This document shows, in pieces, positions 1-64,000 of a stretch of 64,000 nt of DNA. The DNA is from Saprospiraceae bacterium (GTDB lineage: Bacteria > Bacteroidota > Bacteroidia > Chitinophagales > Saprospiraceae). Where the stretch lies: NCBI GenBank assembly GCA_043744455.1, contig JAYTUQ010000138.1:4051-68050 (forward strand). The letters are read 5' to 3'. Each line of letters starts with the position of its first letter. Position 1 is the first letter of the stretch. The notes under the pieces are model-generated. The model saw nothing but the letters and a program-made list of their open reading frames with translations. It was not told where the DNA came from and made no database searches. Made by a program: the position numbers and the translations under genes.

Positions 1-296
1 GCTGAAGCATTAATCCGTTTGCTGTGCATTTCGCAACGGAACAAAGCGGGCGTTCCGTCTTGCATTTTTGAAGCTTTCATACCTTCAAAAATGGATTGAC
101 CGTAATGGATTGCCATGTTCGCAGGGTGTAAAGTCAAATTGCCGAAAGGACGCACTTCGAGGTTTGTCCATTCGCCATTGATATAGTCAGCAACAAACAT
201 ATGGTCGCTGAATGTACGCCCAAAGGGAATATTGTTGAAATCTAAACTTGCCAAACGTGAGTTTTGAGTCAGATTTACATTAATTTTGTGATTCAT
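1..296 (-). CDS. ilvE: branched-chain amino acid aminotransferase, N-terminal part (gene continues beyond window start)
   Basis: Own translation of the minus strand from ATG at 296: MNHKINVNLTQNSRLASLDFNNIPFGRTFSDHMFVADYINGEWTNLEVRPFGNLTLHPANMAIHYGQSIFEGMKASK. The FSDHM and HYGQxxFEGxKA motifs are typical of IlvE. Not in the ORF track because it is open at the window edge. Confidence 0.75.
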   Translation of the reverse strand, partial: MNHKINVNLTQNSRLASLDFNNIPFGRTFSDHMFVADYINGEWTNLEVRPFGNLTLHPANMAIHYGQSIFEGMKASKMQDGTPALFRCEMHSKRINAS

Positions 297-555
297 AATA
301 GAATTATTTAAAATAATTTGGAAAGATTTGGTAGGCTGATTACGTATTAAGGCACGAATAATTGAATAAAAAAAATATAGAAAATAAATTAATTTTTGTT
401 CTTTTAACAAATTTCTATTTTTAAGATTAGATTTCCAAAAATTTCAAAGGAAATTTTCCTACTCATAAAACATTATTTGCTTCAAACCCCTTATTGTTAA
501 TATTTATTTTGACAACTTTATTTTGAATTTTAATTAAATAATCAAATTTTCTATT

Positions 556-993
556 TTGAATACTGCATTTTTCGATTACACAATTTACAAAATTTCAGAT
601 TTAACAAATTTTAATGAATCGCTCATGGGTGATAACCAACGGCGTATTTTAGTTGGTATTTTAGACGAACAACACAACGAACCAGAGACTTTTCTCCATA
701 AAATCATTAATTCTGCAAAACTCGATTTAGAAAAAGACTGTTTGATACTGAGGGGCATAGCTGAGTGTAATATGCCAACTTTTTCTCAAATCAAAAGTTT
801 TCATAAAATTGAAAAAGCCATTTTATTTGGTCTAACGGGCAAAGATTTAGGTTTGAACATCGAAACCCATTTGTACATCCCTTTTTCTTTTAATAATTGT
901 CAATTCATGTTTGCAGATAAATTATCTATTGTAGAAAATTCTGTCGAGCGAAAAAAGGCTTTGTGGTTGGGTTTGCAAATGCTTTTTTTGTAA
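556..993 (+). CDS. hypothetical protein (145 aa, TTG start)
   Basis: Isolated ORF with coding-like composition. No family recognised. Confidence 0.4.
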   Translation: MNTAFFDYTIYKISDLTNFNESLMGDNQRRILVGILDEQHNEPETFLHKIINSAKLDLEKDCLILRGIAECNMPTFSQIKSFHKIEKAILFGLTGKDLGLNIETHLYIPFSFNNCQFMFADKLSIVENSVERKKALWLGLQMLFL

Positions 994-997
994 TTGG

Positions 998-1606
998 TTA
1001 TTTGTAGCCCTCTTTCCACAGTTCAAAATAGGCATATTTGTCGGAATAGACATATTTTTCATCTTGTTGGTGCCATTTGAGACTGTGCATTAATTGTATA
1101 CTGGCTTCATTCTTTCTATCCGTATAAACCAACAACTTTATCTTATTTGAGTTATCAAATATAAATGTTGAAAAATGTGTAATAGCTTCACGTACAAAGC
1201 CTTGTCTTCTAAATTTTTCTCCTACTGCGTAGCCAATCGTGGCTTTTCGATTGGCACTACCGAACACTTGATTGGATAAATCGTGTAGATGAAAGACACC
1301 CGCATATTCCCCCGTCGTATTTAATCTCAAAAGCCAATCAAAAGCGGCATTTTTAATAGAAAAACGGCTGTATTCCATCATACAAGACACGTAATCCTCC
1401 ACTTCTTCTTGTATTTTAAACCGTTCGTCAACAAAAGGGTTTAAATCATTTTTAAAAATGTCAAATAATTGCAAACCATTTTCATAAGTCAAAGGCTCAA
1501 ACGTCAAATTTACTGAGGGGGGGATATCGGGCAAAAAGAAATGCTGCTGCATACTTTTTGTTCGTGCTTCTTTCCAAAAATTTTTTCTTTCTAAAGGCAT
1601 CTGCAA
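998..1606 (-). CDS. GNAT family N-acetyltransferase (RimJ/RimL-like)
   Basis: The segment IGYAVGEKFRRQGFVREAITHFSTFIFDNSNKIKLLVYTDRKNEASIQLMHSLKW resembles the acetyl-CoA binding core of Acetyltransf_3-type GNATs. Confidence 0.7.
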   Translation of the reverse strand: MQMPLERKNFWKEARTKSMQQHFFLPDIPPSVNLTFEPLTYENGLQLFDIFKNDLNPFVDERFKIQEEVEDYVSCMMEYSRFSIKNAAFDWLLRLNTTGEYAGVFHLHDLSNQVFGSANRKATIGYAVGEKFRRQGFVREAITHFSTFIFDNSNKIKLLVYTDRKNEASIQLMHSLKWHQQDEKYVYSDKYAYFELWKEGYK

Positions 1607-1664: not shown

Positions 1665-2240
1665 TTAATTTATACCCAAATCACATTCAACTTTAGATAA
1701 AAGCCATTTTCCATTCTCTTTTGTCAATTCATAAGAACGTTCAAATTCACCGTTCTCATCTTTGGCATAGAGTGTTGCTTTGGCATGTGTATCATCTGTT
1801 TTAACGACACGAACAGGCGATTTAGTCCACATAGCAATATCGCCATCTTGTGCACACAACATTTTGTCCGCATCCATACCTGATGGAATATCACCAATTT
1901 CTTCGTTTTGCCACAATTTCTCGCATTTTTTATAGAAACCCATCTCACCAGCGATAAATGATTCTGTTACAAAACCACTTTTCATAAACTCGCCAAGATA
2001 CTTTTTCAATGCAAGTTCATTGATTTTCAAATGTTTACCACTGTCATCTGTGATGTCAAATGCACGCGTTGTATCGCGTTGCATCGCGTCATACCACATA
2101 AAAAAACCATGAATGGTCGCTGCAATTTCCGTAGAATCATTGGATACTGAGGGGGGCATTTTTTCGGTTGCTGCCTTTGTTTTGTCTGCACAATTTGTCA
2201 AAATTAAAAAGCAGGCCGCCAAAAAGAATAAGTGCTTCAT
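1665..2240 (-). CDS. lipoprotein of unknown function
   Basis: N-terminus MKHLFFLAACFLILTNC is a lipoprotein signal peptide with a lipobox Cys. No overlapping competitor except a shadow ORF. Confidence 0.6.
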   Translation of the reverse strand: MKHLFFLAACFLILTNCADKTKAATEKMPPSVSNDSTEIAATIHGFFMWYDAMQRDTTRAFDITDDSGKHLKINELALKKYLGEFMKSGFVTESFIAGEMGFYKKCEKLWQNEEIGDIPSGMDADKMLCAQDGDIAMWTKSPVRVVKTDDTHAKATLYAKDENGEFERSYELTKENGKWLLSKVECDLGIN

Positions 2241-2389: not shown

Positions 2390-3703
2390 TCAGTCTTTCG
2401 TTGAAAATACAGATTGTCCATTATTCACAACACCCCAAACCGACCCCCTCAGTAGCGCACCTATTAAAGGCGTGTTTTTAGACTTGGAACGAATGTCTTT
2501 TGCTTGAAAAGTCCATATGTCATCAACATTAAAAATGGTCAAATTGGCTTCTGCTCCCACCGAAATAGAAGGCATATCAAGTCCTAAAACTTGACGGGGT
2601 TGTATGGCTAAAAATCGAACTAAATCGCTGATTGTGAAAGTTTTGTTCAGATATTGATTGATTAAACCAAAAGTTGTTTCAAGACCGATTGCCCCAAAAT
2701 CAGCATACGGAAATTCCAAATTTTTCCCTTCTTCGGCAATGGGTGTGTGATTGGTGGATATAAAATCAATCGTTCCATCGGCTAAACCTGCTATAAGTGC
2801 TTGACGGTCAACATCTTCGCGCAAGGGCGGCATCACTTTAAAGTTGGTATCGAACCCCCTCAGTACCTCGTCCGTAAAACATAGATTTAAGACTGCAACA
2901 CTTGCGGTCACCTTCAAGCCGCGTTTTTTTGCGCTACGCACGCTGGCAACAGCACCCGCAGTTGAGATATTGTGAAAATGAAGACGTGAATCTGCATAAG
3001 CCAAAAGCGACAAATCACGCTGCACCATCAGCTCCTCTGCCATCGAAGGAATGCCAGATAAACCCAAAGACGTAGAGACTTCGCCTTCATGAATCTCGCC
3101 ATGTGGCGCAATCGTTTTGTCATTTGGCACATTAAAAATAAGACCATCAAAAATTTTGGCATATTGCATACCCCTCAGTAAAAGACTTGCATCTTGAACC
3201 GAATGCCCTCCATCACTAAAAGCAACGGCACCCACAGAACGCATGTCGAGCATTTCAGCCATATCTTTTCCTTGACAATCAACTGACAACGCACCAATCG
3301 GTTCAAAATCAACAAGATATGACTTTGTCCTATTTTTTATGTATAAAATTTCAGACTTAGAATGAATGGCTGGTTCTGTGTTTGGGAAAGGGGCAAGCAT
3401 CGTAAAACCGCCTGCCATCGCGGCATGAGAAACTGACTCGAGGTCTTCTCGATGCTCTAAACCAGGGTCGCCTATTTGTGTGCCTACATCACACCAACCA
3501 ATTGAAACACAAGCGTTTGGCTGTTCAAATACTTCTATTTCGCTTTCATCTTCAAGCGTAATAGAGGTATCAATTTTAAAAATTTTACCATTTTCGATTA
3601 AAATATCGCGGATTTGACCGTCAAGAAGCGGCTGATTGGGTGCGATGATGCAGATATTACGCAAAAGAAGTTGCGGCATAATAGGTGTCTTTTTGGGACG
3701 CAA
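2390..3703 (-). CDS. dihydroorotase-like amidohydrolase (possibly non-catalytic); likely true start at 3679 (MPQLLLRN)
   Basis: Class I DHOase-like layout: GDPGLEHREDLESVSHAAMAGGFT, FISTNHTP, GAIGLETTF. The usual HxH metal-ligand motif is replaced by GWCDVGTQ, and DHAPH by TNHTP. Confidence 0.75.
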   Translation of the reverse strand: MRPKKTPIMPQLLLRNICIIAPNQPLLDGQIRDILIENGKIFKIDTSITLEDESEIEVFEQPNACVSIGWCDVGTQIGDPGLEHREDLESVSHAAMAGGFTMLAPFPNTEPAIHSKSEILYIKNRTKSYLVDFEPIGALSVDCQGKDMAEMLDMRSVGAVAFSDGGHSVQDASLLLRGMQYAKIFDGLIFNVPNDKTIAPHGEIHEGEVSTSLGLSGIPSMAEELMVQRDLSLLAYADSRLHFHNISTAGAVASVRSAKKRGLKVTASVAVLNLCFTDEVLRGFDTNFKVMPPLREDVDRQALIAGLADGTIDFISTNHTPIAEEGKNLEFPYADFGAIGLETTFGLINQYLNKTFTISDLVRFLAIQPRQVLGLDMPSISVGAEANLTIFNVDDIWTFQAKDIRSKSKNTPLIGALLRGSVWGVVNNGQSVFSTKD

Positions 3704-3838: not shown

Positions 3839-4912
3839 TTAGATTCGTTTCAAAATCTCCTCTCCAATCGCATCAGTGCCCAAAATCATATTTTTAGGTG
3901 TGTTTGCGTCAGCGATATCGCCCGTTCTGAAACCTGCTTTGAGCACAGCATCAACGGCTGCAATTATCGCTTCCGATTCTTCTTTCATACCAAAAGAAAT
4001 ATCTAACAACAAAGCCGCAGACAAAACAGAAGCCATTGGATTGGCAATGCCCATGCCCGTAATATCGTGTGCCGAACCATGAATTGGTTCATAAACGCCT
4101 GTGCTATCCCCTACCGAAGCCGATGCCAACATACCCATAGAGCCAGCAATTTGAGAGGCTTCGTCCGTCAAAATATCGCCAAATAAGTTGCCTGTAACGA
4201 CCACATCGAAGCGGCGCGGGTCTTTAATCAACAACATAGCTGCGGAATCAACAAATTGATGTGTCAACTCAACATCTGGATAATCTTTAGCCACTTCTAG
4301 AACTGTTTCACGCCATAAACGACTGCTCTCCAACACATTAGCCTTGTCAACGGACATTAATTTGTTGCGGCGAGTACGTGCTGCTTCAAATGCGCGGCGA
4401 GTGATGCGCTCGACTTCATAGCGGTGATAACCTGCAATATCGTAAGCGTAAGTATTCTCTTCGTTACGCCCTTTTTCGCCAAAATAAATATCGCCAGTCA
4501 ATTCCCTGAAAAAGAGAATATCGGCACCCCTCAGTAATTCGGGCTTAATGCTCGATGCGTCTAAGAGTTCATCAAACAATTTGATTGGACGTAAATTGGC
4601 ATATAAACCCAATTCTTTACGCATTCTCAAAAGCCCTTGTTCAGGGCGCACTTTCGCTGTCGGGTCATTGTCATATTTTGGATGACCGACGGCGCCAAAC
4701 AAAATAGCGTCCGAAGCCCGCATTTTCGCCAATGATTCATCAGGCAACGGATTGCCCGTCGCTTCAATCGCTGCATGACCGATGAGGGCTTCGTCATAGA
4801 CGAATTCATGCCCAAATTTGGCGGCAATTTTGTCCAAAACCTTTTTGCCAACGGCAGTTACTTCCTGCCCAATACCGTCTCCTGGGACGATTAAGATGTT
4901 CTTTTTTGCCAT
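3839..4912 (-). CDS. leuB: 3-isopropylmalate dehydrogenase
   Basis: Full-length match in style to LeuB: ILIVPGDGIGQEV, LFGAVG, NLRP, GDILTDEASQIAGSMGMLASAS, YEPIHGSAHDI. Confidence 0.95.
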   Translation of the reverse strand: MAKKNILIVPGDGIGQEVTAVGKKVLDKIAAKFGHEFVYDEALIGHAAIEATGNPLPDESLAKMRASDAILFGAVGHPKYDNDPTAKVRPEQGLLRMRKELGLYANLRPIKLFDELLDASSIKPELLRGADILFFRELTGDIYFGEKGRNEENTYAYDIAGYHRYEVERITRRAFEAARTRRNKLMSVDKANVLESSRLWRETVLEVAKDYPDVELTHQFVDSAAMLLIKDPRRFDVVVTGNLFGDILTDEASQIAGSMGMLASASVGDSTGVYEPIHGSAHDITGMGIANPMASVLSAALLLDISFGMKEESEAIIAAVDAVLKAGFRTGDIADANTPKNMILGTDAIGEEILKRI

Positions 4913-4972
4913 AATTTTATTGAAAAATACTGATTATACTGAGGGGGTGTGTTTATGATAAAAAATTGATTT

Positions 4973-6096: not shown

Positions 6097-6099
6097 TGA

Positions 6100-6348: not shown

Positions 6349-6448
6349 TGTCGTAAGTTTTTACAAAAAAAACGTTTTTTAATCAAAAAGCTAAAATATA
6401 CTGAGGGGGTGCTTCAAACCGCTGCAAAATTTCTTGAAAATAGGGTAT

Positions 6449-7615: not shown

Positions 7616-7698
7616 AGCGCAAAAATACTATTTACCTTGAAAATTAAAAAGGTAATTTTAGAATTTTCATGGTTTTCGTAAAAATACTGAGGGGGGTC

Positions 7699-9847: not shown

Positions 9848-9970
9848 AACTTAAAACCCACTTTATGCCACACGGCAATTCTTTCAAAAATAATAAACCT
9901 CATTCGCCTTTTCAAAGAAACAACTGGTCATCGTCCCAAAGGTAATTTGGTAGATTAAATACTGAGGGGG

Positions 9971-11152: not shown

Positions 11153-11270
11153 TTTATTGTTAATGATGAATGATAAATGATGAATAATGAATGGTTGGAC
11201 GATATTTTCGGAAAACTTGAAAAGTTTTTCCGAAAATACCCCCCTCAGTATAAACGGCATAAATTCCGTT

Positions 11271-12674: not shown

Positions 12675-13023
12675 TTTAATTATTATATTTTTAGTGGTGC
12701 GAAATTAAAGTAATTGGGTCAAAAACAAGATAAAATGATGTGTGGGATTACGATGTCCAAAATAGTAATTTTTAAAACTTTATTTGGATGGTTATGAATT
12801 CATCATAATACCCCCCCTCAGTATTTGCTCGATTTAGAAATACTTTACAAATCCGTTAGGATTTTCACGTTTGTAAAAAAACATAAGCCTTTCTTTCCAT
12901 TTTTTAAGTATGTTTGTTTCAAAAATATTGGAACAATATTTATAAACCTTAGACATATTTAGAAGGACAAAAATCCTTACACTTTTTACACCATTTTTTA
13001 TTCACTCTAAACGCTTTGTTCAA

Positions 13024-14628
13024 ATGAAAAACAATACGACCAAGACACCGCTTTTCAATACGTTGCGAAAAGCTCTCCGTATGGCTATTACTGCCAATAA
13101 AACACAAGCCTCTTCCGAAGAAATGGTACAACGTGCCGAAGAATCCTTAATGACGAGACGTAAATTCATCGAAAATACAGGTAAAACGCTCATTATTGGC
13201 GGTTTGACGGGCTCGACTACTGAGGGGGTATTTGGTCACAGCCTTTTCTCTAAAAATCCACCACGTATTGCTATTGTCGGAGCGGGCATTGCGGGACTTC
13301 ACACCTTGCATATACTCAAAAAGGCAGGAATTGACGCAACAATTTACGAAGCATCGGGCAGAACAAGCGGACGTATATTTACCGTTCAAAATGCGATGGG
13401 CGAAGGGACTTGGACAGAATTTGGCGGTGAATTTGTGGATACCAACCATAAAGACATGTGGGATTTGGCGAAAGAGTTTAGCCTTGAACTCATTGACTAT
13501 GCACAGACATCTGAAAATGCTTTGACGAAAGAAGTTTTCTTCTTTGAGGGTAAAAATCACTCACTTAAAGAGGTTGTTGAGGCATTTCGGGGCTTTGCAG
13601 ACAAAATTGCTGCCGACGCGGAACGTTTGCCCGACAATATGAGTACGGAAGGGTATAAAACTAAAGACCCCTTTATCAAAAAACTCGACCGCATGTCGTT
13701 GTCGGCATATCTCGAAAAGATAGGTGCAAGGGGCTGGATTAAAGAATTTATTGAAGTCAGTTACGAATCTGAATATGGTTTGTCGCCACAGGTTCAGTCA
13801 GCGATTAATTTACCTATTCTTATATCTACGGATACTGAGGGGGGCAAATTTGAGTTGTTTGGCGAGAGCGATGAACGATATAAAGTCAAAGGAGGCAACC
13901 AATCTATTCCTGATGCTATTGCAAAGAAATATACCGAACATATACAACTCAATCGTTCGTTGGAAGCTATTAGTCGCTCGTCAAATCATTATAATTTGAC
14001 GTTTTCAGGTATGAAAAATCCAGTAAAAGCGGACTATGTGGTTATTGCTATACCCTTTTCACGCTTAAGAAATGTTGATATTCGCCTACAAATGCCACAA
14101 GTTAAATGGGATTCCATAAATCATATGGGTTTTGGGTCAAATGCTAAATTGATGCTCGGTATGAACAAGCATTTTTGGCGCGGACAAGGCTTTCAAGGCT
14201 TGTGTTATGCCGATAATGGTATTCCAAACGGTTGGGACAATGCCCAATTGCAGAATGGGGACAACCAAGTGGCTGGTTTGTCAATCTTATTTGGTGGTCC
14301 ATCAGGTATAGCCCTAGGAAAAGGCTCTGTTCATTCACAAAAAGACAAATATTTGCCGCTTTGGGATAAGATTTATAACGGCGCAATTGAAAATTTTAAT
14401 GGCAAAATGGTGCGGATGCACTGGCCTTCTTACCCTTACGCACTCGGCAGCTATATTTGTTATCGTGCAGGACAATATACGAGTATTGCAGGTGCTGAAG
14501 CGATGCCCATTGGCAATGTCTTTTTTGCAGGTGAACATTGTGGCGGAGATTTTTCGGGTTTTATGAATGGTGCGGCTCAAAGTGGTCGTGAGGCAGCAGA
14601 AAAAATCGTTGCGAAAGTGGCTAAATAG
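13024..14628 (+). CDS. FAD-dependent amine oxidase (flavin monoamine/L-amino-acid oxidase family), probable Tat-exported
   Basis: Twin-arginine-like signal MTRRKFIENTGKTLIIGGL. Dinucleotide-binding fold IAIVGAGIAGLHTLHILKKAGIDATIYEASGRTSGR. C-terminal FFAGEH motif. The true start may be an internal Met upstream of the RR motif. Confidence 0.8.
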   Translation: MKNNTTKTPLFNTLRKALRMAITANKTQASSEEMVQRAEESLMTRRKFIENTGKTLIIGGLTGSTTEGVFGHSLFSKNPPRIAIVGAGIAGLHTLHILKKAGIDATIYEASGRTSGRIFTVQNAMGEGTWTEFGGEFVDTNHKDMWDLAKEFSLELIDYAQTSENALTKEVFFFEGKNHSLKEVVEAFRGFADKIAADAERLPDNMSTEGYKTKDPFIKKLDRMSLSAYLEKIGARGWIKEFIEVSYESEYGLSPQVQSAINLPILISTDTEGGKFELFGESDERYKVKGGNQSIPDAIAKKYTEHIQLNRSLEAISRSSNHYNLTFSGMKNPVKADYVVIAIPFSRLRNVDIRLQMPQVKWDSINHMGFGSNAKLMLGMNKHFWRGQGFQGLCYADNGIPNGWDNAQLQNGDNQVAGLSILFGGPSGIALGKGSVHSQKDKYLPLWDKIYNGAIENFNGKMVRMHWPSYPYALGSYICYRAGQYTSIAGAEAMPIGNVFFAGEHCGGDFSGFMNGAAQSGREAAEKIVAKVAK

Positions 14629-14837
14629 TCTATATTTTCAGGTACTTCAAAAGTCTCTTCAATGATTTTATACCCCCTCAGTAAAAATGATAACAAGCGA
14701 CTCAACCTCGTCGAAATTCAGATTTCGACGAGGTTTTTTCATACTTCTTTTTTCCTATCTTTACCTTTTTTAAAGACATTTGTAAGTAGGGCAATTACAA
14801 CATTCGCCCTTTCATTATCACCAATCATTGAAATAAT

Positions 14838-20650: not shown

Positions 20651-20669
20651 ATATTATCATCAAAATATT

Positions 20670-39630: not shown

Positions 39631-39752
39631 ATTTTAGAATTATCATCACCCCCTCAGTAAAAATACTCAAAAATAAGTACCTTGCTACCGCAACAACATT
39701 CACATCGGTTTTAGCCCATAAAATTTTGCATTTATTGATAAAATTAAACAAC

Positions 39753-47702: not shown

Positions 47703-47924
47703 TTCTGTCGCCATTGCTTATACCGCTCAAATATAAAAAGTTTTGTCGTACTTTTCGTATTGTCCCTCATTTACAACTTGAGGTGTTCACATAAAGGAGA
47801 ATTCATCAAAGAGGAAATTTAATCCTTACCTTTAATTTCCTTATAAACTATTTCGGGTATCAAAAACCCCCTCAGTATAATACCGCATACGGTTAAATTT
47901 TTTTAATTTGTTCCAGCGGTTCTG

Positions 47925-49013: not shown

Positions 49014-49115
49014 ATGATGTAATTTTTAATTATTTTTTATCGCAAATATAAGGCTCTCTTTTTATTTCCCTACTCTTTGCGCATTTATACTGAGGGGGTC
49101 GATATTCATGACACG

Positions 49116-51304: not shown

Positions 51305-51358
51305 CTATCGAGAAGTTTTGTCTATTTATAAAACAAAAATTCGTTATTTCAATAAAAG

Positions 51359-53110: not shown

Positions 53111-53113
53111 GTT

Positions 53114-55405
53114 TTAAAATTTAAAATTAAAAGAAATGCTTGGAATGATGGGCAGCAGCGACACTTGCTTGGCTTGCGGCTGATTACTGAGGGGGTCAAT
53201 TAAAAAATAAATGAAATACGGATTTTGTCTGTTGTAAGTATTATAAAACCCGAAAATCCATTCTATTTCACAAGGTATTTTAAAGAATTTTCGCTTGTTT
53301 TTATACGCCGCCGATACATCAAAACGGTGATAAGCCCCTAACCGATGGTTATTTCTACCTTCATAAATAAAATAATTGCCTTCAAAAATTGACCCTGCAT
53401 TGAGTGCGGCAACACGCCCCGTAGGCAATGTAAAAGGCGCACCCGATGAATAAACAAAGACAGCACTGAGGTTCCATTTAGGGGTCAATTCATAACTCCC
53501 GGTTATAGATAAAACATGTCGCCTATCATATTTAAAAGGAAATTTTTCACCAAAATTTAATTCCTTAAATGTTTGATTTGTCCAAGAGAGCGTGTAGGCA
53601 ATCCAGCCTGTTAGCTTGCCTGTATTTTTCTTTATAAAAAATTCTGCCCCATAACTTTCTCCTTTGCCATACACAAGGCTGCTATCTAAATTTGCTTTGA
53701 GCGTCAACTGATTGCCTTCTGCAAATAAAACTTGATTGTCCATATTTTTATAATAGACTTCAACACTCGCCTCCAAAGCATTGTTATCAAAATTGCTGAA
53801 ATAGCCCAAAGCATATTGCGTAGAAAATTGGGGTTTTGTATTATTGCTTGAAGGAAGCCAAATATCAGTAGGCAAACCCGCCGTTGAGTTAGGAATTAAA
53901 TGCAAAAACTGATTCATTTGCGTATAAGATGCTTTGACAGAATTGGTTGGATTGATGGATAATTTAGCGGTCAAGCGTGGTTCTATGTTAAAATAGGTTT
54001 TATTTTTTATTAAAAAAACAGGTAGCCTTACCCCATAGTTGATGCTGAATTTGTCTGAAATATCGAACTCATCTCGAGCATAAAAAGCCATTTCGTTGGA
54101 ATAAAATTGCTTAAGGCTGTCTTTGTTAATCGTCACCCGATTTCCCCTTCTTGGAATATTGGCTGAAAATGCGGCAGGAAGCAATGTATGATTAGTGAAA
54201 ATAAAGCCTGTTTTTATAGTATGCTTCGAATTGGGAATAATGGTAAAATCTGTTTTAGCTGTTAGGTCTTTTATGCCTGTATAAAGTGCCGAATAATAAG
54301 AGTTTTGCTCCGTACTCAAAGCCAAATGGTAATCATTGTAGATAACGGAAGTATTAGAAAAAACTTGACTGCCAAACAAGTGATTCCAACGTAAAGTACC
54401 TGTTGTATTACCAAAATCTGTTGAATAATTCAAACTATTTGCCGCATTATAAGCCGCATTGTCATTGCCTTTAAAAAAACTAAGAAATAGATGGTCTTTG
54501 TTTCCAAATTCATAATTCATTTTAACATTCAAATCATAAAATTTATAGGAATTGGACGCAGACAGGCGTTTCAAGATTAAATTAACATGAGACTGTCGCC
54601 CTGAAACGATGAATGAAGATTTGTTCTTTTGAATAGGTCCTTGCACGGTGAGGTTGTTGGAAAGCAAACCGATACCCCCCTCAGTATGAAAGCGATTTTT
54701 ATCACCTTCTTTCATCTGAATATCCAAAATAGAACTCAATCTGCCGCCAAATTCAGCTGGAAAGCCGCCTTTAATCAGCTTCACATGGTTAATAGCATTG
54801 ACATTGAAAGTGCTGAATAAACCGAATAAATGGTTGGGATTATAGACAGTGGCTTCATCTAATTGCACTAAATTTTGATCGAGATTTCCACCTCTAACGA
54901 AGTAGCCAGTCGTCCCTTCTTGCCCCGATTGAACGCCCGGCAAAAGCTGAATAATTTTCAAAATATCACGTTCTCCTGCTATGGCGGGCAGGGTCATAAT
55001 GGCGCGCATCGGTACATCAATAACGCCCATTTGAGCGCGTTGAACGTTGTCATTATTACGCGAAGCCTTTATCTCGATTTCGTCTAAAATAGCGGAATTG
55101 ACCAAAAGGTCAATGTCTAAACGCAGGTTTTCTTTAGTAAAAATCTTCTTCGCTTGGGCTTGATAACCGATAAATGAAATGACCAAACCAATGGTATCCG
55201 CTGCTGAAATGGTGAGCGAATAATAGCCATATTCATTAGCGGTCGTACCACTTTTGGATTGAGGTGAGTAAATAGTAGCGCCAATCAAGGCTTCCTTGCT
55301 TTTTTCAGCTTTGATATAGCCGCTTATTGTGACGGTTTGGGCTGAAACCATTAAATCTTGAAGCATTATCAGCAAAAAAGAAAGGAAAATAAGGTATTTT
55401 TTCAT
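53114..55405 (-). CDS. TonB-dependent receptor with N-terminal carboxypeptidase-regulatory-like domain
   Basis: Signal peptide, then VTISGYIKAEKSKEALIGATIY (CarboxypepD_reg), a plug region (LPGVQSGQEG), a long beta-barrel and a C-terminal ..SISFNFKF. Confidence 0.85.
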   Translation of the reverse strand: MKKYLIFLSFLLIMLQDLMVSAQTVTISGYIKAEKSKEALIGATIYSPQSKSGTTANEYGYYSLTISAADTIGLVISFIGYQAQAKKIFTKENLRLDIDLLVNSAILDEIEIKASRNNDNVQRAQMGVIDVPMRAIMTLPAIAGERDILKIIQLLPGVQSGQEGTTGYFVRGGNLDQNLVQLDEATVYNPNHLFGLFSTFNVNAINHVKLIKGGFPAEFGGRLSSILDIQMKEGDKNRFHTEGGIGLLSNNLTVQGPIQKNKSSFIVSGRQSHVNLILKRLSASNSYKFYDLNVKMNYEFGNKDHLFLSFFKGNDNAAYNAANSLNYSTDFGNTTGTLRWNHLFGSQVFSNTSVIYNDYHLALSTEQNSYYSALYTGIKDLTAKTDFTIIPNSKHTIKTGFIFTNHTLLPAAFSANIPRRGNRVTINKDSLKQFYSNEMAFYARDEFDISDKFSINYGVRLPVFLIKNKTYFNIEPRLTAKLSINPTNSVKASYTQMNQFLHLIPNSTAGLPTDIWLPSSNNTKPQFSTQYALGYFSNFDNNALEASVEVYYKNMDNQVLFAEGNQLTLKANLDSSLVYGKGESYGAEFFIKKNTGKLTGWIAYTLSWTNQTFKELNFGEKFPFKYDRRHVLSITGSYELTPKWNLSAVFVYSSGAPFTLPTGRVAALNAGSIFEGNYFIYEGRNNHRLGAYHRFDVSAAYKNKRKFFKIPCEIEWIFGFYNTYNRQNPYFIYFLIDPLSNQPQAKQVSLLPIIPSISFNFKF

Positions 55406-55529
55406 TTTGTCAGTTTTGAAACAATACGAGATATTCTGTTGGGGGAGATGATACCCCCTCAGTATAAAAGCATTATTTTATAAAAAAATGGTGGAATGTT
55501 GATTAATAAATCAACTGAGAAAAGTAACA

Positions 55530-56107: not shown

Positions 56108-57271
56108 TCAAAAGTCAAACAGAAAACCGCTATTTATGCCCAATATTCTATGCTTTTGCCAGTTGTTTGTAGTGATGTTAACCCGATAGTCAGCCCCGAT
56201 TTTCCAACGGTATTGCTTGGATAATCGCTTTTCAAATCCGACATCGAAAAGGAGGAAACCCCATTGCGTTTCATGCCGTTTGACCATTTGGTCAATATCT
56301 AAAACGGTTCCCAAACTGCTGTTTTTGAATTCATAACCCACTTCATAAGGCAACGAAGTGACCGCCCCAAAGCCTAACCCAATATAAGGTTGCCAACCTT
56401 TTGGGCTATCAAAACGATAGCGGATACCTGCCATATATTGTATGGTCGGTTGCTTAATAATAGCGCGATTAAAAGGATAAGTTCTATCAGGCGACAGTAT
56501 GACAGGCACGCCAATCACATCGCTCATTTTATCAACATTATAACTAATTTGAGCATAATGAGCATCCGCCCAAAGTGATAAGTTCGGCGAAAAAAACACA
56601 GCACCACTCAAACCCCATTTGAAACCTGAAGGATGACTCAAACCATCACCAAACGGAAATAATAGACCTGCCGAAATGCCCAAACCATAATCCTTAGGAC
56701 GCAAAACTTCAAGGCGTTGTGCAAGCGTTTTATGCTCATTTTTTATGATTGGGAAATTGCCTAATACCAATAATTCATTTTGTTTTTTTAATTTTAAAGG
56801 AGCGATTGGAATAGTATTTAATTTTTCTAAACTATTGAAATTTTCTGTTGCATTAATAGGCGTATTGATTGTATTATTTTTTTGAAAATTATTATAATTT
56901 GAGGGTAAATAAGACACAATCGTTTCTCTTAAAATCCGTGTTTTATAAATCGTATCTCGTTCAATGATGGTGTTTATTTTATAAATAGTATCAGATTGAA
57001 TGACAATTGTTTTAGAATTAACAGCCTCAAAACGACTATTAAGTGCGGTCACTTCCAGTTCGGTATTTTTCATTTTATGATAGAAAAACCAATTAGCAGC
57101 TAATGAGCATAATAATAAAGGCGCAAGCCCCCACAGCAGCCACATACTGAGGGGGTGCTTAGTCTTCTGCGGGGGAAGTTGTTTTTCTAAAGCTAACCAA
57201 TCTTTTTCTACAAAAGGCGGTTCCGGTCTATTGTCAAGATTATCTTGAAATTGTTTGAAAAAATTATCCAT
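56108..57271 (-). CDS. putative anti-sigma factor / membrane protein with C-terminal beta-barrel-like domain
   Basis: Lies 3 nt downstream of the ECF sigma gene. Single TM (LSMWLLWGLAPLLLCSLAANWFFY), with a C-terminus rich in alternating aromatic/Gly beta-strands. Confidence 0.55.
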   Translation of the reverse strand: MDNFFKQFQDNLDNRPEPPFVEKDWLALEKQLPPQKTKHPLSMWLLWGLAPLLLCSLAANWFFYHKMKNTELEVTALNSRFEAVNSKTIVIQSDTIYKINTIIERDTIYKTRILRETIVSYLPSNYNNFQKNNTINTPINATENFNSLEKLNTIPIAPLKLKKQNELLVLGNFPIIKNEHKTLAQRLEVLRPKDYGLGISAGLLFPFGDGLSHPSGFKWGLSGAVFFSPNLSLWADAHYAQISYNVDKMSDVIGVPVILSPDRTYPFNRAIIKQPTIQYMAGIRYRFDSPKGWQPYIGLGFGAVTSLPYEVGYEFKNSSLGTVLDIDQMVKRHETQWGFLLFDVGFEKRLSKQYRWKIGADYRVNITTNNWQKHRILGINSGFLFDF

Positions 57272-57274: not shown

Positions 57275-57865
57275 CTACAATGATTTGTATTTTATTGTTG
57301 CCGCTTGCCCATTTTTAGGTAAACGATGAACGAGCATGTCTCTCAATTTTTCTTTGGCGCGAGCTAAATTGGCTCTTGACGTACTTTCTGTAATACCGAG
57401 CATCGAAGCAATCTCTTTATGATTATATTCTTCCATCACATAGAGGTTAAAAACCATTCGATACTGAGGGGGTAAGGCTTGTACAAGGGGCAAAGCATCT
57501 TCTTCTGATGACAAAACAGGCAAAGGCAATTCATCATCTAAGAGATAAATCACCGAATCAATATCTATTGTCGTTGGAAATTTATGTTGAGCGCGGTGAT
57601 AATCAATAGCAGAATGTATCAAAATACGCCGAAACCAAGGCTTAAACGGCTGTTCTATATTGTATTGATGGAGTTTAGAAAAAACTTTTATGAAAGCATC
57701 ATTCAATATTTCGACAGCTTCTTCCCGATTGTATGCATATCGCAACCCAATACTCAGCCCGTAGCCGTAGTACAGTTCATACAACGCCCGCTGACAATTC
57801 CGATTTTCTTTTTTACACCCTTCAAGAATTCGGAGGACATCTTTTTCGCTGGTATTTTTCATCAT
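57275..57865 (-). CDS. ECF-type RNA polymerase sigma-70 factor
   Basis: Region 2 (ELYYGYGLSIGLRYAYNREEAVEILNDAFIKVF) and region 4 (YNHKEIASMLGITESTSRANLARAKEKL). Confidence 0.85.
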   Translation of the reverse strand: MMKNTSEKDVLRILEGCKKENRNCQRALYELYYGYGLSIGLRYAYNREEAVEILNDAFIKVFSKLHQYNIEQPFKPWFRRILIHSAIDYHRAQHKFPTTIDIDSVIYLLDDELPLPVLSSEEDALPLVQALPPQYRMVFNLYVMEEYNHKEIASMLGITESTSRANLARAKEKLRDMLVHRLPKNGQAATIKYKSL

Positions 57866-58367: not shown

Positions 58368-58540
58368 TATTTGTTCCGACTGTCTGGACATTCTTGTATT
58401 TCTATGCTTTTAGGTAAATTTTTTACTGTGATACCCCCCTCAGTATTTTTTATCATTTTATACTCAATTGAAAATAGTTTACCTAAAAACAAAGGGGTTT
58501 TCAACGCTTTAAATTATTCATTATCAACTATCCATTAACG

Positions 58541-60586: not shown

Positions 60587-60778
60587 TCCGATTGTCTTTA
60601 ATTTTTAGTTGGCGTATTTACGAATTACGGATTGGTTAATGTCAAAAGTTGCCCTTAAAGTGTCAATCGTCCACTTGTCGGGTGGTGAGTGTACTTTGGG
60701 TGCGATTGGGCAAAAATAGCAAACGAATTGGTGCATACGTTCATTTATATGTTTTTTATTCAGTTCTACCCAACTATC

Positions 60779-61039: not shown

Positions 61040-61230
61040 AGAACAGGGTCTTGTAAACACAACTTGTCCCGAATCATCGGGATGTCCGTAAAGTGCACAT
61101 AGGTTTTTGTTCTTTTTACTGTTTACACGTATCTGAGACTTTTAAAGTATCAGATACGTCTTGTCGAAGAAAGCTATGTCCGCTCTATGGCTATGTGTTC
61201 TAAACAAATTACCCTTTATTTGCACCAAAA

Positions 61231-62178
61231 ATGACAGTCCGAGAAGTCAAACGCGATTTTATACAAACACTTTCTCCTCAATACGGCTTAGGTGAAGCGC
61301 GTGCCATGAGCCGCTACATTTTTGAAGATTATTTTGGTTCAAAATACGAGACCGATACTTTCCTTGATTTTTTAATTGAAGATTTTAATGCCATTAAAAA
61401 ACGGCTGTTGGCGGGTGAACCTGTGCAATATGTTGTCGGTTTTGCTTGGTTTTATGGTTTAAAATTCAAAGTCAATCCCAATGTCTTGATTCCGAGACCT
61501 GAAACGGAGGAATTGGTCGCGTGGGTTCTTGAAAGTGTCAATAGTCATTGGTCATCAGACATTGGTCATTTGTCATTGGTCAATGGTCAGCAGCCTATAA
61601 TGCAGAACCCAAAACCCGAAACGCAAAACGCATTACCCAAAACGCGAAACGCGAAACGCATAACTCTTTTAGACATTGGTACGGGTTCAGGCTGTATTCC
61701 CATTACTTTAAAGGTTAAAAATCCCGATTTAGTTGTTTCTGCCGTTGATATCAGCGAAGGCGCTTTGATTACCGCGAGCCGCAACGCTTATCGTATGACT
61801 GCGGACGTTGATTTCAAACGAATGGACATTTTGAATGAAAACGATTGGTCACAGGTCGGTCGTTTTGATGTGATTGTCAGCAATCCGCCTTATATTCCCA
61901 CAAAGGAAAAGGCTTTGATGTCGCATAATGTGTTGGACTATGAGCCTCATTTGGCTTTGTTTGTGGATGATGACGATGCTTTGATTTTTTATACACAGAT
62001 AGCCAATTTCGCTCTTTTGCACTTAAATACTGAGGGGGTGCTTTTTTATGAATGTAATGAATACAATGCCGTCGAAGTGGTTGATATGTTGAAAAATAAA
62101 GGGTTTAAGTCAGTTGAATTGCAAAAAGATATGAGCGGGAAGGATAGGATGATTAGGGCTTGTTTTTTTGACCACTGA
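61231..62178 (+). CDS. prmC: peptide chain release factor N5-glutamine methyltransferase, with an in-frame low-complexity insertion
   Basis: VLIPRPETEELV, LDIGTGSGCI and VSNPPYIP are HemK/PrmC motifs. About 35-40 extra residues lie between the ETE and GTGSG motifs. Confidence 0.85.
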   Translation: MTVREVKRDFIQTLSPQYGLGEARAMSRYIFEDYFGSKYETDTFLDFLIEDFNAIKKRLLAGEPVQYVVGFAWFYGLKFKVNPNVLIPRPETEELVAWVLESVNSHWSSDIGHLSLVNGQQPIMQNPKPETQNALPKTRNAKRITLLDIGTGSGCIPITLKVKNPDLVVSAVDISEGALITASRNAYRMTADVDFKRMDILNENDWSQVGRFDVIVSNPPYIPTKEKALMSHNVLDYEPHLALFVDDDDALIFYTQIANFALLHLNTEGVLFYECNEYNAVEVVDMLKNKGFKSVELQKDMSGKDRMIRACFFDH

Positions 62179-62280
62179 TGGGACAGATACGACTGATTTT
62201 CTCTGATTTTCTTTTTTGATTTTATAAAATTGAGAAAAAAAAATCAGAGAAAATCAGTCGTATCTGTCCCATCAGTGGTC
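62170..62280. repeat. perfect 41-bp inverted repeat with a 29-bp loop
   Basis: Arm 62170-62210 GACCACTGATGGGACAGATACGACTGATTTTCTCTGATTTT is the exact reverse complement of 62240-62280. It is flanked by T7 on the left and A9 on the right, and arm 1 contains the prmC stop codon. Confidence 0.9.
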
Positions 62281-62325
62281 AAAAAAAAACATAATATTCC
62301 AACCAAACCATTTAGTTTTGCCATT

Positions 62326-64000
62326 ATGTCAGAAAAAAAGAAATTATTAGAAGTAAAAGACCTTGAGGTTCAGTTTGAAATAGAAAACAGAACGCTCACT
62401 GCTGTCAAACGCATCAGTTTTACGCTGCACAAAGGTGAAACGGTGGGCATTGTGGGCGAATCGGGTTCGGGCAAATCGGTGACCTCGTTGTCCATTATGC
62501 GATTGATTGCCGAACCGCCAGGACGTATTTCAAATGGTCAAATACTGTTTTATAGGGAGAGAGGTGATGTTGTGGATTTATTGACATTGCCAGAAAAACA
62601 AATGCAAAAACATCGCGGCAACGACATTGCAATGATATTTCAAGAGCCGATGACGTCCCTAAATCCCGTCTATACCTGCGGCGACCAAGTGATGGAAGCT
62701 ATTTTGACACATCAAAAAATCAATAAAAAAGCGGCTAAGCAACAAACCCTTGCCTTGTTTGAAAAAGTGCAACTGCCTGACCCCGAAAGGGCGTTTAGGA
62801 GCTATCCACATCAATTGAGTGGCGGACAAAAACAGCGTGTGATGATTGCCATGGCGATGTCGTGCAACCCGTCAATACTGATTGCCGACGAACCGACGAC
62901 TGCCCTCGACGTAACGGTGCAACAAACGATATTGGAATTGATGAAAGATTTGCAACGCGAATCAGATGCAGCAGTTGTGTTCATTACACATGATTTGGGG
63001 GTGATTGCGGACATTGCAGACCGTGTTTTGGTGATGTACAAAGGCGAGATTGTGGAGGAAGGTGCTGTCGAACAGATATTCAAATCGCCCAAACATCCTT
63101 ATACGAAAAGCCTTTTGGCGTGTCGTCCGCCTTTGGGTGATCGATTGCGGCGATTGCCTGTGGTTGCCGATTTTATGGATGTCGAAACCGATGCCGATGG
63201 CACGATGCGTATTGTTGAAAAAGAACATTCTGTGGGCGAATTATTGTCGAAAATGAAGATTCCACAAGCGGAAATTCAAACTCGTTTGTCCGATTTGATG
63301 AAAAATGAGCCAATTTTGCGCGTTGAAAACCTTAAAACGTGGTTTCCTACCAAACATAATTTCTTTGGCAAACCCACTGAATACGTCAAGGCGGTGGATG
63401 ATGTCAGTTTTACGGTATATCCAGGCGAAACATTGGGTTTGGTGGGTGAATCGGGCTGCGGAAAGACCACTTTAGGTCGTGCGATACTCCGTTTATCTCC
63501 TGCTACTGAGGGATCTATTTTTTTTGAAAACAACGATTTGGTGCATTTGGATGCAGATGCTTTAAAGGCTTTGCGTAGAGACATACAGATTATTTTTCAA
63601 GACCCATATTCGTCCTTAAATCCACGTATGACGATTGGTTCTGCGATAATGGAACCGATGCAAGTGCATAAATTGTATAAAAACGATGCGGAACGTAAGC
63701 AAAAAGTGATAGAATTATTGGAAACTGTCAGCATGAATGCCCAGCATTTTAATCGTTATCCGCATGAATTTTCGGGTGGTCAGCGACAACGGATATGTAT
63801 TGCCCGTGCCTTGGCGTTGAATCCCAAATTTATCATTTGTGATGAATCTGTGTCTGCGCTCGATGTGTCTGTGCAAGCGCAAGTCTTGAATTTGTTGATA
63901 GAATTGCGTCAAAAGATGCAGTTTACGTGCATATTTATAAGCCATGATTTGTCTGTCGTGAAGTTCATATCAGATAGAATGGTGGTGATGAACAAAGGAA
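62326..64000 (+). CDS. ABC transporter ATP-binding protein with two fused ATPase domains (Dpp/Opp D-F type), runs off window end
   Basis: Own translation MSEKKKLLEVKDLEVQF... Walker A GESGSGKS and signature LSGGQKQRVMIA, then a second Walker A GESGCGKTT and signature FSGGQRQRICIA. No stop before 64000. Confidence 0.85.
   Translation, partial: MSEKKKLLEVKDLEVQFEIENRTLTAVKRISFTLHKGETVGIVGESGSGKSVTSLSIMRLIAEPPGRISNGQILFYRERGDVVDLLTLPEKQMQKHRGNDIAMIFQEPMTSLNPVYTCGDQVMEAILTHQKINKKAAKQQTLALFEKVQLPDPERAFRSYPHQLSGGQKQRVMIAMAMSCNPSILIADEPTTALDVTVQQTILELMKDLQRESDAAVVFITHDLGVIADIADRVLVMYKGEIVEEGAVEQIFKSPKHPYTKSLLACRPPLGDRLRRLPVVADFMDVETDADGTMRIVEKEHSVGELLSKMKIPQAEIQTRLSDLMKNEPILRVENLKTWFPTKHNFFGKPTEYVKAVDDVSFTVYPGETLGLVGESGCGKTTLGRAILRLSPATEGSIFFENNDLVHLDADALKALRRDIQIIFQDPYSSLNPRMTIGSAIMEPMQVHKLYKNDAERKQKVIELLETVSMNAQHFNRYPHEFSGGQRQRICIARALALNPKFIICDESVSALDVSVQAQVLNLLIELRQKMQFTCIFISHDLSVVKFISDRMVVMNKG

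Follow-up and report, generated by a model that had tools for sequence, protein, structure and literature searches.

A frequent word spread through genes, spacers and phages is a pattern known from Neisseria and Haemophilus, where DNA uptake sequences form it, and the USS core is adjoined by phased AT tracts. In temperate Pasteurellaceae phages USS builds up to about 750 copies per Mb (PMC6776037), DUS spacing follows the size of conversion fragments (PMC2397512), and for the kingDUS of K. oralis one mismatch adds 21% (PMC3630211). Within Bacteroidota, Riemerella is naturally transformable without pili, and competition assays show that R. columbina favours DNA of its own over other DNA (PMC8459023, PMC7965970), so an uptake reading is plausible in this phylum. 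No report of natural competence in Saprospiraceae and no earlier description of an uptake-sequence-like motif of the present kind in Bacteroidota were found in the literature; as far as could be found, the pattern is new for Bacteroidota.

The window, a stretch of 64,000 nucleotides from a Saprospiraceae bacterium that was analysed at its full length, contains 49 copies of CTGAGGGG/CCCCTCAG (27 plus, 22 minus). The preferred form is the 13-base word ATACTGAGGGGGT, in which the G-run varies from 4 to 7. TACTGAGGGG was present in 47 copies; the two 8-mer copies without it, at 10139 and 31599, are both GACTGAGGGG. The individual copies are as follows.

746..755, plus: motif copy TACTGAGGGG, CDS 556-993 (+), sense
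1511..1520, plus: motif copy, GNAT acetyltransferase CDS 998-1606 (-), antisense
2145..2154, plus: motif copy, DUF3828 CDS 1665-2240 (-), antisense
2445..2454, minus: motif copy, amidohydrolase CDS 2390-3703 (-), sense
2856..2865, minus: motif copy, amidohydrolase CDS 2390-3703 (-), sense
3171..3180, minus: motif copy, amidohydrolase CDS 2390-3703 (-), sense
4527..4536, minus: motif copy, leuB, encodes LLRG; motif at the same site in L078 (16769)
4937..4946, plus: motif copy, intergenic, spacer between leuB and YhcG-like nuclease
6399..6408, plus: motif copy, intergenic
7685..7694, plus: motif copy, intergenic, 5 nt past cimA stop codon
8753..8762, plus: motif copy, cimA, antisense; orthologous L078 site is CACCTGAGTA, two substitutions, no indel
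9960..9969, plus: motif copy, intergenic, 2 nt past a stop codon
10139..10148, minus: variant copy GACTGAGGGG, CDS 9971-10507 (-), sense
11241..11250, minus: motif copy, intergenic, 23 nt past leuC stop; ATAC..GTAT form
12814..12823, minus: motif copy, intergenic, upstream of leuC; G7 run
13218..13227, plus: motif copy, FAD oxidoreductase CDS 13024-14628 (+), sense
13833..13842, plus: motif copy, FAD oxidoreductase CDS 13024-14628 (+), sense
14674..14683, minus: motif copy, spacer between 14628 and 14838
15505..15514, plus: motif copy, oligopeptide:H+ symporter CDS, sense
18155..18164, plus: motif copy, acylase CDS 16382-18565 (-), antisense
19073..19082, plus: motif copy, ORF 19028-19501 (-), antisense
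22766..22775, plus: motif copy, Type III Mod CDS, antisense
23613..23622, minus: motif copy, Type III Mod CDS, sense
25052..25061, plus: motif copy, Type III Res CDS, antisense
26044..26053, minus: motif copy, Type III Res CDS, sense
27361..27370, minus: motif copy, msrA CDS (+), antisense
28049..28058, minus: motif copy, alpha/beta hydrolase CDS (-), sense
28896..28905, plus: motif copy, alpha/beta hydrolase CDS (-), antisense
31394..31403, plus: motif copy, dioxygenase-like CDS (+), sense
31597..31606, plus: variant copy GACTGAGGGG, dioxygenase-like CDS (+), sense
33159..33168, minus: motif copy, murG offset +83, GAC CCC TCA GTA (DPSV); identical in 5 clade genomes
33612..33621, plus: motif copy, murG offset +538; common to L377 and L379
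34508..34517, minus: motif copy, intergenic; ATAC..GTAT form
36046..36055, minus: motif copy, 1625-aa T9SS-sorted protein CDS (+), antisense
37609..37618, minus: motif copy, 1625-aa T9SS-sorted protein CDS (+), antisense
39650..39659, minus: motif copy, intergenic, 20 nt past a stop codon
41469..41478, plus: motif copy, MBL-fold hydrolase CDS (+), sense
41850..41859, plus: motif copy, MBL-fold hydrolase CDS (+), sense
45450..45459, minus: motif copy, CDS 45027-46328 (+), antisense
46151..46160, plus: motif copy, CDS 45027-46328 (+), sense
47868..47877, minus: motif copy, intergenic
49088..49097, plus: motif copy, intergenic
53185..53194, plus: motif copy, CarboxypepD_reg/beta-barrel OMP CDS (-), antisense
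54677..54686, minus: motif copy, CarboxypepD_reg/beta-barrel OMP CDS (-), sense
55455..55464, minus: motif copy, intergenic; ATAC..GTAT form
57145..57154, plus: motif copy, OMP beta-barrel CDS (-), antisense
57462..57471, plus: motif copy, ECF sigma factor CDS (-), antisense
58436..58445, minus: motif copy, intergenic; ATAC..GTAT form
62028..62037, plus: motif copy, methyltransferase CDS 61231-62178 (+), sense

In dinucleotide shuffles of the window the 8-mer had an expected number of 0.28 and the 10-mer one of 0.03, while Markov models of order 1-4 put the 10-mer at 0.02-0.3; across all null models, 47-49 copies were observed vs 0.01-0.3 expected. The over-represented motif described in the original prediction is confirmed as real. 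Its copy positions were all correct within a few bases; its count of about 48 (26/22) was nearly right, missing the copy at 748, and it overestimated the chance number of 8-mers, put there at about 2. G-run lengths were 4 (n=14), 5 (n=26), 6 (n=6) and 7 (n=3), the same range as had been proposed, with a T directly after the run in 43/49 copies. The symmetric ATAC...GTAT form, also reported from the start, was present in 6/49 copies, 5 of them intergenic. Exact copies numbered 168 vs 19 one-mismatch variants, a share of 11% as against 21% for the kingDUS. A weak phased signal of A/T-rich flank positions (-2, -12/-13, -22) is reminiscent of the tracts beside the USS core.

In ten genomes of the clade (MurG identity 73% or more), with 209 kb of DNA, 175 copies were found (0.84 per kb; 88 plus, 87 minus). 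A further 160 loci from Bacteroidota outside the clade, 2.56 Mb in all, contained no copy of the 10-mer. Comparison with relatives, as originally suggested, places the motif in one Saprospiraceae clade, to which it is restricted and whose members have it in common; neither the clade nor the sister lineage showed dialect variants. An assembly artefact was rejected, given the same motif in independent assemblies from NCBI, ENA, JGI and Logan.

Coding copies used all five stop-free reading frames on both strands, with 0 copies in the sense frame that places TGA in frame, and the sense:antisense ratio of 41:66 was in line with the 2:3 ratio of available frames. A protein motif was rejected on these in-frame copies in conserved genes, in agreement with the original prediction, whose readings (TEG, LRG, PSV, PLS, PQY) were matched and which is joined by a murG site built from synonymous codons. 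There, Asp-Pro-Ser-Val is encoded by GAC CCC TCA GTA in five clade genomes and by GAC CCG TCT GTA in two motif-free sister (outgroup) genomes; other third codon positions were 21% invariant among the four clade genomes in the murG alignment. Substitutions were the sole differences between motif-bearing and motif-free orthologous sites. These alignments indicate that copies arise in place by point substitution and that synonymous motif sites are frozen within the clade, and selection appears to act on the DNA, not on the protein. A mobile repeat (MITE/REP), raised as a question earlier, was rejected, as information content was at background outside about -2 to +10 and orthologues showed no insertions; REP-like elements of the sister lineage are quite unlike the motif.

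Known Chi sites are 5-8 nt long and polar relative to replication. Co-orientation with local GC skew was seen for 70/143 copies (p=0.87), and finding 27/49 copies or fewer on one strand would have P=0.002 if an E. coli-like 75% skew held. A Chi/KOPS-type signal was rejected since orientation was unrelated to transcription or GC skew, and the lack of strand skew first noted in the window extends to the clade. DUS forms inverted-pair terminators, whereas this motif almost never does (1 pair among 143 copies).

Density in the window was about 0.8 per kb (766 per Mb), similar to USS and DUS and to the initial estimate of about 1 per 1.3 kb. Spacing was more even than random in 5/5 loci (Fisher combined p=0.002). 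The earlier suggestion that motif-free gaps mark accessory DNA failed by length, the largest window gap being 4.1 kb vs 5.7 kb expected under random placement, and held through gene annotation: in a post hoc grouping, defence/mobile-annotated genes carried 6 copies in 18.2 kb (0.33 per kb) vs 43 copies in 45.8 kb (0.94 per kb) for the rest of the window (p=0.011). GC content explained little (Spearman rho 0.18, p=0.15). Spacers were enriched 1.7-fold (25% of copies in 15% of DNA, p=0.0015), and the match to the 13-mer was closer for copies in spacers than for those in coding sequence.

In about 8 phage contigs the motif recurs once every 1.0-1.8 kb, equal to host density, with copies also inside terminase and structural genes; some of the sampled motif-bearing phage loci encode a terminase, tail spike, holin or lysozyme. 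The window value of 766 per Mb compares with the USS figure of up to about 750 per Mb in temperate Pasteurellaceae phages. About 130 kb of motif-rich phage DNA yielded no integrase, and the temperate lifestyle required by the USS precedent is therefore only putative for these phages. They are rich in anti-restriction functions (ArdA and several methyltransferases).

With about even confidence, ATACTGAGGGGGT is read as a putative DNA uptake (self-recognition) sequence, specific to the clade and akin to USS and DUS, which would accumulate by biased uptake and recombination. The likeness to uptake sequences drawn in the original prediction is supported by density, frame and strand independence, lineage restriction and unconserved flanks, and gains new support from regular spacing, spacer enrichment, accessory-gene depletion and the motif in co-occurring phages. 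USS behaves alike on most points, including accumulation in temperate phages. Each part of that prediction open to a test on sequence was upheld. This evidence supports a resemblance to an uptake sequence, whereas preferential DNA uptake would be a putative role; from the pattern in the DNA we infer biased uptake, a receptor and a link to recombination. The DNA-binding part of the transformation apparatus, probably pilus-independent in Bacteroidota as in Riemerella, would prefer double-stranded fragments with the word over those without. Word-bearing fragments would be imported more often and would recombine into the chromosome, and alleles in which a point mutation had created the word would displace those without it, a molecular drive possibly strengthened by selection for exchange with relatives. 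Over time the number of words would level off near one for each recombination-tract length, in both orientations and at any place that coding permits, with the best consensus match in spacers, and would spread slowly into newly acquired genes and resident phages. comEC, dprA, comF, comEA and Riemerella-type envelope genes were not seen in the 209 kb of clade DNA. This speaks against the uptake reading, as do the lack of reported competence in Saprospiraceae, the phage DNA free of integrase, the missing dialects, the post hoc nature of the accessory-gene grouping and the near absence of inverted pairs.

Host-level density in phages would also fit a self mark mimicked by phages or a mutational bias. 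An intracellular mark is an unlikely explanation: a nuclease of the host, or one of its recombination or defence systems, would read the 13-mer in either orientation and marked DNA would be spared or repaired, a Chi/RecBCD-like logic without polarity in which selection would lead the host to retain the mark and phages to copy it. Phages at host density, down to their terminase and structural genes and with no integrase in the sampled parts, and their heavy anti-restriction outfit speak for it, and regular spacing with frozen synonymous sites would suit a mark needed on every stretch of DNA. However, the phage evidence does not discriminate, because a true uptake sequence is known to build up in temperate phages too, and depletion in resident defence/accessory genes is awkward if all self DNA needs the mark. 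Chi sites are shorter and polar, a polarity that the strand counts and GC-skew result above do not show, and no system is known to read a mark of 13 bp in both orientations.

One mechanism discussed for HIP1 in cyanobacteria is a very-short-patch-like correction coupled to a methyltransferase. A comparable sequence-specific mutation or repair bias, converting near-cognate sequences to the motif in any DNA replicating in these cells, is improbable here. It would account for a motif alike in host genes, spacers and phages, for origin by point substitution, for a very sharp exact form with few one-mismatch neighbours, and for the methyltransferases abundant in the window and phages. However, the repair biases known to us act on 4-6 bp contexts and none on an asymmetric 13-mer; random spacing is predicted where regular spacing was observed, and neither the phased flank signal nor the scarcity of copies in accessory genes, whose composition is similar, is explained.

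A binding-site array for a clade-specific chromosome-organising or nucleoid-associated protein is more doubtful still: it would suit a motif that is evenly spaced, enriched in spacers and indifferent to orientation, but equal phage density and accessory-gene depletion are left unexplained, and we know of no precedent among specific nucleoid-protein sites (parS, matS, those bound by SlmA or Noc) for a density of about 800 per Mb with three quarters of the sites within coding sequence. That the motif is an assembly artefact, a translated protein motif or the core of a short mobile repeat has a negligible probability, already refuted by the tests above (flanks, substitutions, five frames, independent assemblies, dissimilar REP-like elements in the sister lineage), after which no support is left.

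As minor observations, short flanks are common to a few copies (3707/5135/5396 in L078 and 5675/5800 in L379), and a tandem repeat in L380 carries one motif copy per unit.

The 8-mer core CTGAGGGG/CCCCTCAG was found 49 times in the window (27 plus, 22 minus), against 0.28 copies expected from dinucleotide-preserving shuffles of the same DNA. Nearly all copies (47/49) extend to the 10-mer TACTGAGGGG, for which dinucleotide shuffles gave an expectation of 0.03; Markov models of order 1-4 placed the expected number in the window at 0.02-0.3. The positions given in the original prediction were right within a few bases, and its count was short by the copy at 748, which had been missed. Density in the window is 766 copies per Mb. 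Across the ten Saprospiraceae genomes found to carry the motif (MurG identity of at least 73%, the window included; hereafter the clade), 175 copies were counted in 209 kb.

The word is sharp, with 168 exact 10-mers recovered from the ten clade genomes versus 19 one-mismatch variants (11%), mostly GACTGAGGGG. The G-run is of variable length, as had been predicted: 4 (14 copies), 5 (26), 6 (6), or 7 (3) in the window, within an overall range of 4-8, and it is directly followed by T in 43 of the 49 window copies. When 142 copies from seven genomes were aligned, information was limited to (A>T)-T-A-C-T-G-A-G-G-G-G-(G>T)-(T>G,C). The full 13-mer, ATACTGAGGGGGT, is asymmetric, contains no palindrome, and is better fit by the 36 spacer copies than by the 107 coding copies (A at −2 in 83% versus 51%; fifth G in 75% versus 59%). 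Flank logos of the aligned copies revealed no conservation outside the core, and the motif is thus not part of a longer repeat. A weak compositional signal was detected in the flanks (chi-square p<1e-4), with A/T-rich positions at −2, −12/−13, and −22, about one helical turn apart, and a G/C-rich stretch from −9 to −7.

The taxonomic range was probed by using MurG homologs at graded identity and then the contigs that carry them. The motif was present at MurG identities of 86, 82, 75, 74, 73, and 73% (0.57-1.14 copies per kb) and absent from contigs at 71 and 70%. Among 80 LeuC loci from reference genomes, it occurred in three only, all from Saprospiraceae MAGs, and it was not found in 80 metagenome MurG loci among the matches listed, all at ≤59% identity. 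The 10-mer had zero copies in 160 non-clade Bacteroidota loci (2.56 Mb). The word is identical throughout the clade, and de novo k-mer scans found no dialect in the clade or in its motif-free sister lineage. Nor did such scans find another dispersed motif in the 160 LeuC/MurG loci and later MurG relatives; elsewhere they gave only tandem arrays and CRISPR-like or REP-like elements (loci L017, L060, L074, L005, L044, L125, L140, L381, and L385). The last two loci belong to the sister lineage. L381 (1132-8809) holds 11 copies of a ~40-nt intergenic REP-like element, CGYGAAAATCCGCCCAATCCGCGTCATCCGCGTTCCAATT, and L385 (1601-9975; 974-14418) holds clustered heptamer arrays, GGATTTC/GGATTGT and AATGATG/AATGATA, with inverted pairs between genes.

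In alignments of the window to related contigs, covering leuB, leuC, leuD, and cimA, motif-bearing and motif-free versions of a site are separated by substitutions alone; the cimA site, for example, reads CCCCTCAGTA in the window and CACCTGAGTA in the clade locus L078. One leuB site, encoding LLRG, is common to the window and a related contig. At offset +83 of murG, five clade genomes have GAC CCC TCA GTA (Asp-Pro-Ser-Val), and the same four residues are spelled GAC CCG TCT GTA in two motif-free outgroups; murG third codon positions are otherwise invariant at 21% across four aligned clade genomes. Two further murG sites are common to subsets of the genomes, with amino-acid changes at variable positions. 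Substitution-only differences and the synonymous murG site show that the motif is built and held at the DNA level. Some copies are old, others have been gained or lost, and none has entered as an inserted block. A mobile repeat was rejected since there were neither conserved flanks nor insertions in the flank logos and orthologous alignments, and an assembly artefact was excluded.

Genes in the window include the leu operon, murG, msrA, transporters, a Type III R-M pair, and several defence-type genes, and a T9SS type B sorting domain marks its Bacteroidota origin; no tRNA and no Rfam family was found in it. Of the copies pooled from seven genomes, 41 lie within genes in sense and 66 in antisense orientation, and 36 lie in spacers. 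The sense frame in which TGA would be read in frame has zero copies, the remaining five frames (two sense, three antisense) all occur, and 41:66 is the ratio predicted by the 2:3 availability of frames; copies thus favour neither strand relative to transcription, and no one peptide is encoded. The earlier claim that this is not a protein motif was borne out, and that explanation was dropped, by the use of five frames on two strands in unrelated genes. Spacers make up 15% of the DNA but contain 25% of copies (p=0.0015); the remaining 75% of copies are coding.

The original prediction had also noted an absence of strand skew, and this extends to the clade, in which 88 copies are plus and 87 minus over ten genomes. 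GC skew in the window is mostly uniform and negative and most genes lie on the minus strand, so the window is probably within one replichore. If copies were skewed to 75%, as Chi is in E. coli, the probability of ≤27 of 49 on one strand would be P=0.002. The G-rich strand of the motif coincides with the locally G-rich strand in 70 of 143 pooled copies (p=0.87). A Chi, KOPS, or priming-site role was rejected for this lack of polarity (27:22 in the window, 88:87 in ten genomes, 70/143 for GC skew).

In each of the five loci with at least 15 copies, spacing was more regular than under random placement (Fisher combined p=0.002), with a coefficient of variation of 0.69-0.84 versus 0.94-0.98. The largest gap in the window is 4.1 kb versus 5.7 kb expected, and six gaps reach 2.4 kb versus 7.4 expected. 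Gaps had been put forward as a hint of foreign DNA; their lengths are not unusual, and what stands of that suggestion is a lower motif density in defence and mobile genes, under a post hoc grouping. For this comparison genes were classed by Pfam and PADLOC, not by motif content. The defence/mobile class carries 6 copies in 18.2 kb (0.33 per kb) versus 43 in 45.8 kb (0.94 per kb) for the rest (p=0.011, post hoc grouping), and p=0.002 was obtained, with the same post hoc grouping, once the Type III R-M pair, which has a normal motif density, was left out. GC content explains little of motif density (Spearman rho 0.18, p=0.15). The class consists of the PDC-S02 nuclease, the PDC-S01 ATPase, the PDC-M50A block, the Type III R-M pair, the EAD11 protein, the XisI/HNH block, an AAA ATPase, and apparently decayed Type I R-M genes, with the following window positions.

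Genes of the window classed as defence or mobile type
4973-5971: YhcG/DUF1016 PDDEXK nuclease, candidate defence gene, motif-free (PADLOC PDC-S02, E 8e-140)
6449-7615: AAA_14+DUF4143 ATPase, candidate defence gene, motif-free (PDC-S01, E 1e-86)
19028-21731: four-ORF block, motif-poor, ~30% GC
19666-20127: ORF in this low-GC block (PADLOC candidate PDC-M50A, E 8e-38)
21906-26876, minus strand: Type III R-M pair (Mod 755 aa, Res 892 aa), four motif copies
28981-30963, minus strand: 660-aa protein, motif-free; sole match an N-terminal effector-associated domain, EAD11
50868-52220: XisI, unannotated ORF, and HNH endonuclease block, motif-free
60131-62178: HsdM N-terminal fragment (151 aa) adjoining a 315-aa methyltransferase, weak Eco57I-like match

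The nuclease and the ATPase separate leuB from cimA within the leu operon, which suggests that they were inserted into this housekeeping operon. No TIR domain was detected in the block at 19028-21731, which had been described as a TIR-like operon, and its remaining ORFs had no Pfam or PADLOC match. The N-terminal part of Res matches the BPTD_3080 restriction endonuclease family, and by its motif density the Type III pair looks long-resident. The genes at 60131-62178 appear to be decayed remnants of a Type I or IIG R-M locus.

Viral contigs (2.9 million) were searched in three 14-mer scans, which returned about 200 single matches, at chance level, and about eight contigs in which a copy occurs every 1.0-1.8 kb. 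Sampled loci of these motif-rich contigs encode large and small terminase, virion, tail-spike, holin, and lysozyme proteins, ArdA, and several DNA methyltransferases, and copies of the motif lie inside structural genes; no integrase was seen in the ~130 kb sampled from parts of these contigs. Temperate Pasteurellaceae phages gather the USS of their hosts, up to ~750 per Mb, large lytic phages do not, and USS content has been used for phage-to-host assignment in that family (PMC6776037). The argument that phage copies speak against an uptake sequence was withdrawn given this gathering by temperate phages (PMC6776037). Motif-rich viral loci (L206 10225-11631, L191 57-1007, and others) also encode ParB-DNA methyltransferase fusions, four N6_N4 methylases, and the ArdA anti-restriction protein, in addition to RadC and PAPS-reductase/DUF3440 proteins. 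From this gene content, clade phages appear to invest heavily against host restriction.

The motif was compared with known systems of short abundant words. Like the USS of Pasteurellaceae, it reaches ~750-800 per Mb in equal orientations, sits in several frames within genes, has spacer copies nearer the consensus, may be denser in core than in accessory DNA (here under a post hoc gene grouping), is restricted to one clade, is gathered by co-evolving phages (PMC6776037), and has a weak A/T signal in its flanks phased by about one helical turn. Unlike the USS, it has a variable G-run (4-8) and is found in another phylum, whose known transformation works without type IV pili (PMC8459023). Its sequence is unrelated to either the Hin-type AAGTGCGGT or the Apl-type ACAAGCGGT, and where the USS has two phased AT tracts 3′ of the core, the A/T positions here are much weaker and on the 5′ side. 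Membership in the Pasteurellaceae USS was rejected given the unrelated core and the lack of two phased 3′ tracts. The DUS of Neisseriaceae (ATGCCGTCTGAA and dialects), for which the minor pilin ComP is the receptor, resembles the motif as an asymmetric word of 12-13 bp, at about one per kb, common to the genera of one clade, sharp (one-mismatch forms 11% here, 21% for kingDUS), and regularly spaced in a range compatible with recombination tracts. The motif differs from the DUS by the absence of observed dialects and by the near absence of inverted-pair terminators (one pair within 120 bp among 143 copies). A ComP-type pilin receptor in Bacteroidota is unlikely, and DUS membership was rejected because the sequence is unrelated and only one inverted pair was found. 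With its unrelated sequence and its lack of the inverted-pair terminators of DUS, the motif is an analogue of DUS and USS, and by sequence a member of neither.

Other systems resemble the motif less. Chi and KOPS/AIMS are likewise short, G-rich, over-represented, and present in genes, and phages can carry host Chi, but these words are 5-8 nt and strongly co-oriented with replication, whereas the motif is 13 nt and without polarity. HIP1 of cyanobacteria (GCGATCGC), whose function is debated, is also a hyper-abundant, short, lineage-specific word in and between genes; however, it is an 8-bp palindrome overlapping methyltransferase sites, and the longer motif was rejected as a HIP1-type palindrome for its asymmetry. 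REP/BIME and MITE elements share the many dispersed copies but are mostly palindromic units of 20-150 nt that are limited to spacers and spread whole, unlike a 13-nt motif that is mostly coding and arises by substitution; real REP-like examples are those of L381 and L385.

Given that this genomic footprint matches USS and DUS point by point, we regard a clade-specific DNA uptake or self-recognition sequence as the best explanation of the motif, with confidence that is about evenly balanced. Such a word would accumulate through biased uptake and homologous recombination, and DUS spacing has been found to track the length of conversion fragments (PMC2397512). In Bacteroidota, Riemerella anatipestifer is naturally transformable via ComEC, DprA, ComF, and Bacteroidota-specific envelope proteins, with no type IV pili (PMC8459023), and R. 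columbina favours its own DNA in competition assays, in a paper that defines no uptake motif (PMC7965970). An uptake sequence in this phylum is plausible by analogy with Riemerella transformation.

In the 209 kb of clade loci, no competence gene (ComEC, DprA, ComF, or outer-membrane uptake system) and no receptor candidate was seen. One pair of genes in the window broadly resembles in type RA0C_RS04915 and RS04920, which serve in Riemerella transformation:

52199-55405, minus strand: CarboxypepD_reg+Plug+beta-barrel outer-membrane protein (763 aa) adjoining a DUF4249 partner (303 aa)

It was rejected as an ortholog of the Riemerella pair since the partner domain differs (DUF5689/DUF5017 in Riemerella), which leaves it a lead only. 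In the clade loci L377 and L378 (7877-9883), murG adjoins the gene of a predicted extracellular nuclease, an Endonuclease_1 (PF04231) that is secreted and ends in a T9SS sorting tail. The Vibrio nuclease Dns, which is related to Endonuclease_1, modulates transformation.

Three other explanations were weighed against an uptake sequence. The motif may be an intracellular, genome-wide identity mark, a 13-bp and orientation-free word that phages copy and that is recognised by a nuclease, recombination system, or defence system peculiar to the clade; we consider this unlikely, and if true it would constitute a code for self of another kind than Chi, methylation, or uptake sequences. That a sequence-specific repair bias is the source of the motif seems more doubtful still, and binding sites for a nucleoid protein are the least probable of the three.

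The motif was not mentioned in any paper found by full-text literature searches, nor did these turn up competence in Saprospiraceae or a Bacteroidota uptake sequence. To our knowledge, hyper-abundant uptake sequences are established in two proteobacterial families only, Pasteurellaceae and Neisseriaceae. The motif is a genomic signature of USS/DUS type in a new phylum, probably with a different receptor. If it is an uptake sequence, it would be a third, independent case, in Bacteroidota, and the phenomenon would be general; because transformation in this phylum works without type IV pili, a new kind of sequence-specific DNA receptor would be required. Questions raised are which protein reads the word, whether molecular drive alone is sufficient to build such signatures, and whether these abundant, mostly uncultured freshwater and sludge bacteria are naturally transformable. 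For binning clade contigs the motif is an inexpensive marker, and it also links phages to this host, about 8 phage contigs having been picked out of 2.9 million. Added to DNA constructs, it could make bacteria of the clade genetically tractable.

Individual copies in two other clade loci have particular settings. In L380 (928-1765), a tandem Ig-like repeat gene carries the motif once in every 279-bp unit, and another copy in this locus, at 15049, lies in a hairpin loop (AAAACGGTTGAA / TTCAACCGTTTT). The sole inverted motif pair, with identical 13-nt flanks, is upstream of leuC in L068 (3931/3987).
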